The notes below the pieces were generated by a model. It searched no databases and was not told where the DNA came from. It was given only the letters and a program-made list of their open reading frames with translations. A stretch of DNA of 64,000 bases, from the IMG/VR virus record IMGVR_UViG_2778260994_000001; one strand, written 5' to 3'. Numbering within the stretch: the first letter of the stretch is position 1; each line of letters begins with the position of its first letter. A program made the translations under genes and the position numbers. Positions 51,651-53,884 of this stretch are shown piece by piece. This stretch comes from a virus (Duplodnaviria > Heunggongvirae > Uroviricota > Caudoviricetes).

Positions 51651-51796
51651 TTGCAACCATGTAAATTATTTCCCTGGTAACTAAAATGTATGAGTTTAAT
51701 TGATATGGGTCAAAGATTTTGACCATTGCATGGTGAAACTTTATGCTACAAAATGTTATTTTAAGGCGTTTTATCTGTGGCAGGAGATAGTTAATC

Positions 51797-52147
51797 ATGT
51801 CATCTGAACATGTTCGTAAAGGTGTAACAAATGCGAAATTCAATGAAGAGCAATCTAATATTCTCTTTATTGAAATAGGAATTCTGTCAATACTGATAGG
51901 TTTAATGTCTAAATCATGGTGGGCCTTTGGCGGTTCTTTTCTTGGACTGATTTTTAGTTTAAGAATAAAATTTCTGGCAATACCATTGATGATTGTATTT
52001 AGCTTAGTATGGGGAGCTATTGGCTATAGTATTGGTACTTTGTTTGAATCAACAGCAGCAAGTATTGTTTTGGGGGTAATTGCTTTCCTGAGTGGTTTGG
52101 GTACTCATTTTGCTGCCGTGCAATGGGCAAATGATATTGCAGAATAA
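51797..52147 (+). CDS. Small polytopic membrane protein (116 aa, four predicted TM helices), first gene of AT-rich cassette
   Basis: AGGAG RBS 9 nt upstream; four hydrophobic segments; strongly AT-rich coding sequence. Confidence 0.7.
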   Translation: MSSEHVRKGVTNAKFNEEQSNILFIEIGILSILIGLMSKSWWAFGGSFLGLIFSLRIKFLAIPLMIVFSLVWGAIGYSIGTLFESTAASIVLGVIAFLSGLGTHFAAVQWANDIAE

Positions 52148-52169
52148 TTACAGATAAGAAGCGAAAAGA

Positions 52170-52646
52170 ATGAATATGAGATGGTTTTTATTATTTGTAT
52201 CGTTAGTTTCAGCAGGAACATTTGCAAAAATTGATCCTCTACAATGGAATGTAATTGAAGAGAGAGGGGGGAGAGAATATACAATCCATAATCATAATGG
52301 TGATAAGATAAGTTTTTTATGTGATATGGGATTCATGTATGGTTCACCAGATAGTGCAGGTAGTTTAGGCTTGTTGCTAAGTTCGTCGAATAATAAAAAA
52401 GAGTATAATGCTGACAAGAATAAAATAGTATTAACTATAGATGGTGAGCAATATCCTTTTAGCAATCTTGGATCAATGGTTGGAGATTCTTGGTGGTATG
52501 CCTTTTGGCAAGATGCAGCAGATTCAAATGCTAATATGATTGATGCTTATGTTGATAATGAAAAAATTGCTACATTCCCTCTTTCTGGGCTAAGTAAGTT
52601 GTATCAACAAGCCAAAATGGATGGATGTATTAAACGAGGCAAATGA
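52170..52646 (+). CDS. Secreted/periplasmic protein with N-terminal signal peptide (158 aa)
   Basis: MNMRWFLLFVSLVSAGTFA signal-like N-terminus; no recognised domain. Confidence 0.7.
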   Translation: MNMRWFLLFVSLVSAGTFAKIDPLQWNVIEERGGREYTIHNHNGDKISFLCDMGFMYGSPDSAGSLGLLLSSSNNKKEYNADKNKIVLTIDGEQYPFSNLGSMVGDSWWYAFWQDAADSNANMIDAYVDNEKIATFPLSGLSKLYQQAKMDGCIKRGK

Positions 52647-52720
52647 TCTTTCTGTGTTAAAGATTAACGCAATCAATAAAACATTGGTTGCGTAATATTC
52701 TATTATATAAATGGAATAAT

Positions 52721-53755
52721 ATGACAAAAATTACTAATTCTAATGAGTTGAAGTTACTGTATAAACAGTCAGTGCTCATTCCATCATACAAAGATCACGT
52801 AGCGATCTTGCAAAAACAATTAGGAATAGAAAAACATTCTTTTCAAAATATGACAAGATTGAATAGACAAGCTGTAATTAGTAACTCTCTTCGAAAACAA
52901 TTGGCTAGTATGCCGAACTTGGCTGGAATAGGCAGCAAGTATCGTGAACATATCGCGATTTTACAGAAACAGACTCAGGCTCTTTTCCCTCATGACGCAA
53001 ATAGATATATTCAAATGCTAAGGAAACAGGCCGAAATAGCTATGCCATTACGAAATCAGCTTGAGGTGCTTAATAAGCAAGCTGGTTTAAATAACATGCA
53101 AGCGATACTTAAAGAATTACAACAAAGTGCAAGTTATAAAACAGATGTAAGCCAAGACATAAAGAAAGTACTAGATCACTATGCTAGAACAAGAAATGCT
53201 TCATTACATCAAATAATAGAGCAGGGGATTTCATCTATTGCGCAGGCTTATGCTGAAGGTGCTACTGAAACATCACACACCAAAAGTAATGTTCAAAATA
53301 AAGGATTAAATAAACCTAGCTCAAAGTTTGTTGATTCATTTAAAGAGCTTCCTTATCCACTGCAATGGTTACTAATGGTTATATTTTCTCAAGTTGTGTT
53401 TGGTGCTTTTATTGATTACGGAAAAGAGAAAACCTTGCTGGGAATACACAAGGCAGAATCATATTTTATATCTCTGTTTGAGGATAAACCAATATCAAAA
53501 CAACAATTAATTAAAGAAAACAAAGAAATTAGTTGGGAAGATCTCAATGGTTTTCGTTTTATAACTGGTGAGAACGTAAGATTACACGTCAGTCCTTCTA
53601 TAAATAGTGAGGTGATTGAATGCATTGGCAAAAATACTATAGTGGCTGTTTTAGATAAAAAAGATCGCCAATGGCTTTTCGTGCAGGTTAAATCAGGGGA
53701 CGAGTTTATTACTGGATGGATTACACGAACATACACAAAGCCTCTTAAGGCTTGA
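52721..53755 (+). CDS. Membrane-anchored protein with two tandem N-terminal repeats, one TM helix and C-terminal SH3b-like domain (ATG at 52721; ORF-track TTG start 52688)
   Basis: Repeats Y-x-x-H-[VI]-AILQKQ...; TM LPYPLQWLLMVIFSQVVFGAFIDYG; C-terminal VRLHVSPSINSEVIECIGKNTIVAVL...GWITRTY fits the bacterial SH3 pattern. Confidence 0.7.
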   Translation: MTKITNSNELKLLYKQSVLIPSYKDHVAILQKQLGIEKHSFQNMTRLNRQAVISNSLRKQLASMPNLAGIGSKYREHIAILQKQTQALFPHDANRYIQMLRKQAEIAMPLRNQLEVLNKQAGLNNMQAILKELQQSASYKTDVSQDIKKVLDHYARTRNASLHQIIEQGISSIAQAYAEGATETSHTKSNVQNKGLNKPSSKFVDSFKELPYPLQWLLMVIFSQVVFGAFIDYGKEKTLLGIHKAESYFISLFEDKPISKQQLIKENKEISWEDLNGFRFITGENVRLHVSPSINSEVIECIGKNTIVAVLDKKDRQWLFVQVKSGDEFITGWITRTYTKPLKA

Positions 53756-53884
53756 ATTTTATCACCGTATCTTGGGGCTGGGTGTTGATGACGATGTGCT
53801 ACTTGAAGTACTTGGGTTTTTTAACGCAGCATCTGAAATGTGTAGACTGACCGGTAACAAATGACAACTCGTAGAATCGGGTAA

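Follow-up and report, generated by a model that had tools for sequence, protein, structure and literature searches.

The 64-kb stretch of virus record IMGVR_UViG_2778260994_000001 (the window, analyzed as a whole) belongs to a P1-like phage-plasmid in which three plus-strand genes, referred to here as A, B and C, lie between two regulatory sites, namely Oc4, the C1 repressor operator of the c4-icd-ant immunity operon, and LPsit, the late promoter of the tail operon. This region is one recurrent allele of an accessory ("moron") slot kept between Oc4 and LPsit. Sequence comparisons showed that the allele is recurrent, compositionally foreign, uncharacterised and, judging from the predicted features of its products, targeted to the envelope, and that it is unrelated to the Sim proteins of P1 or to catalogued defence proteins. 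The variability and the low guanine-cytosine (GC) content of the slot have already been published, while the A-B-C allele itself is uncharacterised.

The flanks of the three genes are 95-97% identical to P1, P7, SJ46 and RCS47. When we aligned the window with P1, P7 and an O111 plasmid, the backbone similarity ended at Oc4 and resumed, near-identical, from about position 53855. The window contains 10 C1 operator-like sites against 0.29 expected, the P1 annotation puts Oc4 at the equivalent site, and the similarity to P1 and P7 is lost just downstream of it. An earlier reading of the sequence (the original prediction) had placed three plus-strand genes here, running opposite to the minus-strand c4-icd-ant operon, and our open reading frames (ORFs) and RefSeq agree with it; RefSeq has these three coding sequences in its annotation of identical plasmids. 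The proposed AT-richness was confirmed as well, since the GC content is 0.31-0.36 over positions 51600-53800 compared with 0.45-0.52 in the flanks, and the lowest-GC 2.2-kb stretch in a sliding calculation over the window starts at 51601 with a value of 0.342 (window mean 0.473, standard deviation (sd) 0.0275). The region is not, however, a fresh insertion peculiar to this element. It is one among several alleles that recur in a slot already described as belonging to the eight low-GC, hypervariable regions found in P1-like phage-plasmids (PMC9603915).

The same slot holds simA-simB-simC in P1 and upf50.5/upf50.0 in P7, and the equivalence with the sim position, which had been mentioned in the original prediction, was borne out by alignments with both elements and by the P1 annotation. 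The simABC genes are annotated with a superimmunity function, and plaque formation by P1 does not need them (PMC10695390). The slot occupants that we inspected, namely SimA, SimB, SimC, the P7 products, a DUF4760 protein, a long SimA-like protein (SimA-long) and A, B and C, look secreted or membrane-bound. SimA, SimB and SimC have hydrophobic, signal-peptide-like N-termini, signal peptides are annotated in both P7 slot products, one of which is labelled an outer-membrane lipoprotein, and the DUF4760 protein contains hydrophobic N-terminal segments. It had been left open earlier whether A, B and C are related to Sim. When we compared them with SimA, SimB and SimC by BLASTP, nothing was found below an expect value (E) of 2, and when the B-family and C-family profiles were aligned with SimB and SimC by hhalign, the probabilities were 0.1-0.6%; we therefore rejected homology to Sim. 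No homology of A, B or C to Upf50.5/Upf50.0 of P7, YafY or YpjK was found either. Searches against the PADLOC-DB 2.0 defence models gave no match for A, B and C at E<=1, or at E<=0.1 for the DUF4760 protein, SimA-long, SimC, the P7 proteins and B2, a paralog of B described below.

The product features named in the original prediction (four hydrophobic segments in A, a signal peptide in B, and two repeats, a transmembrane (TM) helix and an SH3b-like domain in C) were all recovered, the SH3b-like domain as a marginal match in C itself. Gene A encodes a predicted small inner-membrane protein, one of a family of ~115-aa proteins that is widespread but has no name (phrog_15014, function unknown). 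An exhaustive HMMER search among 1.8 billion proteins gave 297 cluster representatives of A relatives at E<=1e-3, and the family has the conserved motifs VRxGxTQAxFNE, SWW and W72-G73. Searches with A against Pfam, NCBIfam and PADLOC gave no match, and the source names that we retrieved for family members all read 'hypothetical' or 'uncharacterized membrane protein'. A few relatives bear N-terminal zinc ribbons, which suggests that the N-terminus of A is cytoplasmic. Relatives of A are found in unrelated mobile elements, one of them less than 3 kb from a DruA-domain gene and a resolvase. For the distant relatives, exact look-up recovered two genome contexts, which had no partner gene in common, and a single-protein scan for such contexts found nothing.

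Gene B encodes a predicted periplasmic protein of the YfjT/YkfB family, which is probably disulphide-bonded. In an alignment of 30 sequences, both of its cysteines, C51 and C153, proved invariant. Its signal peptide, read from the sequence, is typical of the Sec type (MNMRWFLLFVSLVSAGTFA, with predicted cleavage before K). B and YkfB/YfjT are equal in length and share 27% identity in pairwise comparison (E 2e-8 over 141 aa), and the B profile search gave 218 proteins with a precomputed PF27224 assignment, among them the cluster of B itself. The family name is used for B in newer RefSeq records, and NCBIfam release 20 gave no match to B. Relatives of B elsewhere are located on CP4-57/CP4-6-type islands, and our literature search on YfjT/YkfB returned gene lists only, with no function reported.

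Gene C encodes a predicted membrane protein with a single hydrophobic helix at residues 213-231 (hydropathy), and an alternative TTG start at 52688 would extend it to 355 aa. Its N-terminal helical region contains a tandem repeat of ~50 aa in two copies (residues 23-71 and 73-124), whose alignment score was 69 compared with 28.8 +/- 5.3 for shuffles (about 7.6 sd). The putative C-terminal SH3b domain spans approximately residues 276-344 and matches SH3_3 (PF08239) at 285-338 with an E of 1e-5 and 26.0 bits, below the cut-off of 27. The same domain was matched by 27 of the 27 aligned C-family members at E<=1e-3 (best 1.3e-9), and most C homologs carry a precomputed SH3_3 assignment in Pfam. The C family comprises 48 clusters, all from Enterobacterales (Escherichia, Citrobacter, Salmonella, Pseudocitrobacter and Yersinia), whose longest contigs are mostly 70-100 kb. 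Its members are 325-481 aa in length, with an N-terminal repeat region of variable length and a nearly invariant SH3 domain. The AlphaFold2 model of C was poor, with a predicted local distance difference test (pLDDT) score of 48, and a Foldseek search with it gave nothing below an E of 0.1, the weak fold matches being SH3b domains from lysins and from NlpC/P60 proteins; the model was thus too poor to confirm the fold. Searching the PDB by sequence gave either no matches or spurious ones. The PHROG amidase family phrog_1794 weakly matches the SH3 part of C (E 0.008), and no catalytic domain was found in A, B or C. Because C has no signal peptide, its N-terminal repeat domain is most likely cytoplasmic and its SH3b domain periplasmic.

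The original prediction regarded the three genes as a horizontally acquired cassette. While the foreign composition and the envelope-targeted products agree with this, the block is a mosaic of three independently mobile gene families, that is, of separately exchangeable modules and not a single cassette. We examined 25 IMG/VR loci with a C homolog, 18 of which show a P1-like slot with enough upstream sequence, and a B-family gene lay directly before C in all 18 (A-B-C in 6, SimA-long-B2-C' in 11 and B2-C'-DUF4760 in 1). Here B2 is 26-29% identical to B, C' is 61-78% identical to C, and the B2 and C' genes overlap by 14 nt. Other plasmids carry SimA-long, B2 and C' with or without DUF4760, and one further plasmid carries SimA-long together with A, B and C. 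In the O111 plasmid that we examined, the DUF4760 gene follows A and B and replaces C, the junction lying in the final codons of B. Given the modular distribution of A, B and C, we rejected the idea of one three-gene system that is inherited as a unit. The DUF4760 membrane protein itself appears as an exchangeable slot occupant that either replaces or follows C. We found no paper devoted to the A-B-C cassette or to DUF4760, a domain that a single paper mentions.

Distant C homologs also occur singly and at other locations, both in Salmonella and Citrobacter (D6-like phage-plasmids) and in a Yersinia element, where umuDC precedes the C homolog. In the D6-like elements the C homolog is a lone plus-strand gene between minus-strand blocks that correspond to positions ~16000-20900 and ~12100-13400 of the window, and by this correspondence it is placed in a different accessory slot from that of the P1-like elements. 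As for SimA, the 52-aa P1 protein and the N-terminal ~50 residues of the longer secreted 'simA domain protein' share 90% identity, so that P1 simA appears to be a truncated remnant. Toward its C-terminus, this long protein resembles Sit residues ~885-973 (window 58727-58993; tblastn E 3e-6 within the window), with the common motif GMRxxxxQGTLEERARG, and it might mimic a portion of Sit in the periplasm.

We then surveyed 5426 complete E. coli genomes for the slot alleles. The P1-like pmgC-tub backbone was present in 509 genomes (~9%). A match to the sim allele was found in 251 genomes (127 at full length) and the P7-type allele, second commonest after the sim type, in 164, while 113 genomes contained part of A/B/C and 37 the whole A+B+C block, whose products are annotated as hypothetical proteins. 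The DUF4760 gene, on the minus strand in the slot, was found in 46. There are at least five allele types of the slot, all with predicted envelope proteins as their products, and a functional description exists for sim only. Dozens of independent isolates, which cover several hosts and continents, keep the A, B and C ORFs intact with at least 99% identity, and the E. coli sources of the carrier plasmids are varied, with clinical, animal, food and water samples among them. The block was absent, at both the DNA and the protein level, from 50,697 deposited phage genomes, and it is therefore known only from plasmid-form prophages.

A, B and C are under purifying selection. When we used one 95.5%-identical allele as the reference, the ratios of non-synonymous to synonymous substitution rates (dN/dS) were 0.15, 0.12 and 0.34 for A, B and C, respectively. 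Within C, zero non-synonymous changes fell in the SH3 domain, and residues 126-210 formed a divergent patch with a dN/dS of 0.67. Along C (window 52721-53755 compared with locus L025 1571-2605), dS was 0.24-0.30 over codons 1-210 and 0.03-0.05 over codons 211-344, and this mosaic indicates a recombination junction inside gene C, near the TM helix. In one plasmid record, CP148548.1, the reading frames of the cassette are broken into fragments, which is probably a sequencing or assembly error (single-cell assembly) and not decay.

A consensus scan gave one sigma-70-like promoter candidate for A-B(-C), with 9 of 12 matches. This candidate is the only plausible one for gene A, and it lies downstream of Oc4 without overlapping it. 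We also sought the P1 late-promoter motif on the plus strand inside the slot and found none, so that control of A, B and C by a late promoter was rejected. The original prediction had drawn attention to a 17-bp palindrome in the promoter region. The palindrome is present and is the sole perfect 7+7 inverted repeat in 51500-53900, and its arms give -35-like TTGACC hexamers on both strands, one of which overlaps the promoter candidate of gene A. On the other hand, perfect 7+7 inverted repeats with spacers of 0-6 number 63 in the whole window (a spacer of 3 occurs in 12), and the stability of the palindrome hairpin is unremarkable (z = -1.4). Because such repeats are common in the window, the palindrome is no evidence on its own, and its role as a special regulatory site was not supported by these statistics. 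The B-C gap, which is 74 nt in the window, is structured, with three hairpins including an 11-bp stem at 52667-52693. Since the last of these hairpins pairs bases just upstream of the C start codon, it could attenuate or gate the expression of C.

Table 1. Coordinates of the slot, its genes and signals, the neighboring features and the loci used for comparison. Positions are those of the window unless another locus (L number) is given.
Feature	Position	Strand	Basis or remark
Gene A, 116 aa	51797-52147	+	ORF; four hydrophobic segments (hydropathy)
Gene B, 158 aa, secreted, two cysteines, YfjT/YkfB family (PF27224)	52170-52646	+	
Gene C, 344 aa, predicted single-pass membrane protein	52721-53755	+	ORF
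C1 repressor operator Oc4 (Op51-like), left slot edge	51634-51650	-	consensus ATTGCTCTAATAAATTT, 3 mismatches
Late promoter LPsit AAATGACAACTCGTAGAAT, right slot edge	53859-53877	+	exact match to motif derived from annotated P1 LPsit
17-bp palindrome GGTCAAAGATTTTGACC (GGTCAAA-GAT-TTTGACC)	51708-51724		read from sequence
Sigma-70-like promoter candidate for A-B(-C)	51719-51747	+	TTGACC-17-TATGCT; consensus scan, 9/12 matches
Structured B-C spacer, three hairpins	52645-52722	+	terminator-like match; fold -21.9 kcal/mol, z = -6.2 vs shuffles
ant, left neighbor	50044-51081	-	
icd, left neighbor	51078-51299	-	
C4 antisense RNA	51354-51441	-	Rfam RF01695, 76.7 bits
isrK-like leader (Hfq-binding small RNA family)	51486-51564	-	Rfam match, 58.5 bits
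DUF4760 gene	L002 5579-6472	-	
DUF4760 gene	L010 4340-5302		
DUF4760 gene	L009 5307-6128		
DUF4760 gene	L040 5422-6312		
'simA domain protein', 163-172 aa	L010 1645-2163		
'simA domain protein', 163-172 aa	L009 1172-1663		
'simA domain protein', longer	L025 1-582		
P1 simA	L003 2200-2358		compared with 'simA domain protein'
C homolog, D6-like element	L023 6001-7350	+	lone gene between minus-strand blocks
C homolog, D6-like element	L007 6001-7446	+	lone gene between minus-strand blocks
ypjK-yfjS-yfjT, K-12 CP4-57	L006 7446-8616		
Cassette with broken reading frames	L026 (CP148548.1 25750-29123)		probable sequencing or assembly error

To the right of LPsit the window continues with pmgC, tub, pmgB and sit, and the Sit protein is 1140 aa in length. 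On the left, the isrK match is located just upstream of the C4 RNA, inside the c4-icd-ant leader. In this leader part, too, the sequence of the immunity region departs from that of P1 and P7, and the element therefore probably has an immI specificity other than that of P1 or P7.

A, B and C probably form an accessory exclusion or conversion module. Because the block exactly replaces the simABC and upf50 genes, the slot occupants are envelope-targeted and the genes are under purifying selection, we tentatively favor a Sim-like role, in which the products would be expressed in the prophage and act at the envelope, with B and C possibly cooperating; reasoned by analogy from position and protein targeting, this is plausible but still short of probable. 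The three genes would be transcribed from the sigma-70 promoter in the prophage state and not from a late promoter, and their products would serve as a functional analogue of P1 Sim, hindering superinfecting (P1-like) phages between adsorption and the arrival of the DNA in the cytoplasm. The SH3b domain of C would bind peptidoglycan or a ligand in the periplasm and so anchor the protein, and A would be a separable membrane component. B may be the periplasmic partner of C, because all P1-like slots with a C gene have a B-family gene immediately before it, and this adjacency is seen in two diverged slot lineages (B-C and B2-C'). Several points weigh against the Sim-like role. Shared position is weak evidence of a shared role because the Sim phenotype of P1 reportedly appeared, in the older literature, only when the genes were cloned in multicopy. 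The PADLOC models matched neither A, B and C nor the other slot occupants tested. The promoter candidate is a weak consensus match from a scan that was overall not enriched over shuffles, and the topology of C follows only from the missing signal peptide, its flanking charges being ambiguous. In addition, searches with profile hidden Markov models never found the A, B and C families together within ~5 kb outside the P1-like slot, A and B occur without C, and C relatives occur alone in the D6-like and Yersinia elements. Since the families do not travel together outside the slot, the B-C adjacency may reflect shared ancestry of the arrangement and not functional coupling.

It is also conceivable, although we regard it as doubtful, that B and C, with A or the SimA-like protein as an exchangeable third part, form an undescribed envelope-spanning exclusion system that blocks Sit-mediated genome delivery. 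C, tethered to peptidoglycan by a periplasmic SH3b domain and carrying a variable cytoplasmic repeat domain, and the periplasmic YfjT-family protein B would then together block genome delivery by the Sit (tape-measure/transglycosylase) machinery of P1-like phages at its periplasmic or inner-membrane step. In that case the large YfjT/YkfB family would also acquire a first function. We are a little more doubtful of lysogenic conversion unrelated to phages, in which the genes would benefit the carrier through host envelope stress tolerance, cell-wall remodelling, adhesion or colonisation. It would fit the B family, which otherwise lies on islands beside the YfjS/YafY lipoprotein, antirestriction, RadC and CbtA/CbeA genes and not in defence operons, the best viral match being annotated 'putative adhesin', the varied sources of the carrier plasmids, and the P7 allele, whose glycine-zipper lipoprotein and DUF5384 protein have no known phage role. 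However, the C family is almost confined to contigs of phage-plasmid size, and YfjT/YkfB have no documented role in virulence or fitness. Abortive infection, with A as a membrane-permeabilising effector (broadly RexB-like) and C sensing the envelope through its SH3b domain and signaling through its repeats, seems unlikely to us. A and C may be likened in a general way to RexB and to Zorya ZorAB. In favor of this reading, A is small, with four hydrophobic segments, a conserved buried Glu, and conserved E26 and H104 within or beside the segments, C combines a peptidoglycan-binding-type domain and a TM helix with a helical tail that is long and varies in length, and A relatives occur in mobile-element contexts (one near the DruA-domain gene and resolvase). 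Against it, A, B and C match no PADLOC model and include no enzymatic or nucleotide-binding effector, the neighbors of A differ between contexts, and the three families are not together outside the slot.

A lytic-cycle accessory, which would modulate lysis or cell-wall degradation via the SH3b protein or aid genome delivery, is in our judgement quite improbable. SH3b is a classical cell-wall-binding module of endolysins, C shows the weak amidase match noted above, the cassette is directly upstream of the tail/sit operon, and a stand-alone SH3 protein beside the lysis cassette of T1-like coliphages has recently been proposed as a lysis accessory (PMC13164509). The slot, however, contains neither a late-promoter motif nor a muralytic domain and has immunity and tail genes as its neighbors, so that we found no sign of membership in a phage lysis cassette; C has no catalytic domain. 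The slot is, moreover, dispensable and freely swapped for unrelated genes in the viable relatives P1 and P7, the lysis genes of P1 lie elsewhere in the genome, and the cassette is missing from all the deposited phage genomes searched. Least probable of all, and hardly to be expected, is that these are selfish or neutral AT-rich genes that are merely tolerated in a recombination hotspot and have no selectable phenotype. The many interchangeable alleles and internal recombination junctions of the hotspot, the dS mosaic within C and the one record with disrupted frames, though probably an assembly error, would agree with such cargo, but dN/dS is well below 1 in A, B and C, the SH3 domain is invariant, the ORFs stay intact at 99% identity or more in dozens of independent isolates, and the A and B families are widely conserved.

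P1-like phage-plasmids are common in E. coli, being found in about 9% of the complete genomes surveyed, and they spread resistance genes. Accessory loci like this slot bear on which phages superinfect the carriers and on which elements replace one another. If A-B-C excludes phages, an unrelated set of proteins would be added to the short list of envelope-level exclusion mechanisms, and the YfjT/YkfB family, which belongs to the 'y-ome', and the ~115-aa membrane family would gain a first functional handle. If it excludes nothing, the locus would be an ordinary moron hotspot and the 'cassette' a recombination mosaic.

Finally, we compared the block with known systems. The C-terminal ~60 residues of C match SH3_3, as in the SH3b cell-wall-binding domains of endolysins and NlpC/P60 hydrolases, but C differs from these proteins in having no catalytic domain, in being tethered to a TM helix and long helical repeats, and in its location outside a lysis cassette. 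YfjT and YkfB, encoded on CP4-57 and CP4-6 of K-12, are true distant homologs of B, in which the signal peptide and both cysteines are kept. In the K-12 order ypjK-yfjS-yfjT, small membrane or lipoprotein genes precede yfjT, as a membrane protein gene precedes B; YpjK is a 78-aa membrane protein and YfjS an inner-membrane lipoprotein, and this order loosely parallels A-B. The K-12 genes, however, have no A-family or C-family companion and are located in integrative islands near GTPase, DUF932, antirestriction, RadC and CbtA/CbeA genes and not in a phage immunity region. The P7 pair, a glycine-zipper lipoprotein and a secreted DUF5384 protein, has the same slot, orientation and envelope targeting as A, B and C, whereas it consists of two genes instead of three and encodes unrelated, likewise uncharacterised proteins. 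As for P1 sim, two of the A, B and C products are predicted integral membrane proteins and one has a predicted SH3b domain, neither of which is a feature of the Sim proteins. Nevertheless, the sim genes are, like A, B and C, three genes with secreted-looking products, and they occupy the identical slot from Oc4 to LPsit, on the plus strand and divergent from c4-icd-ant.

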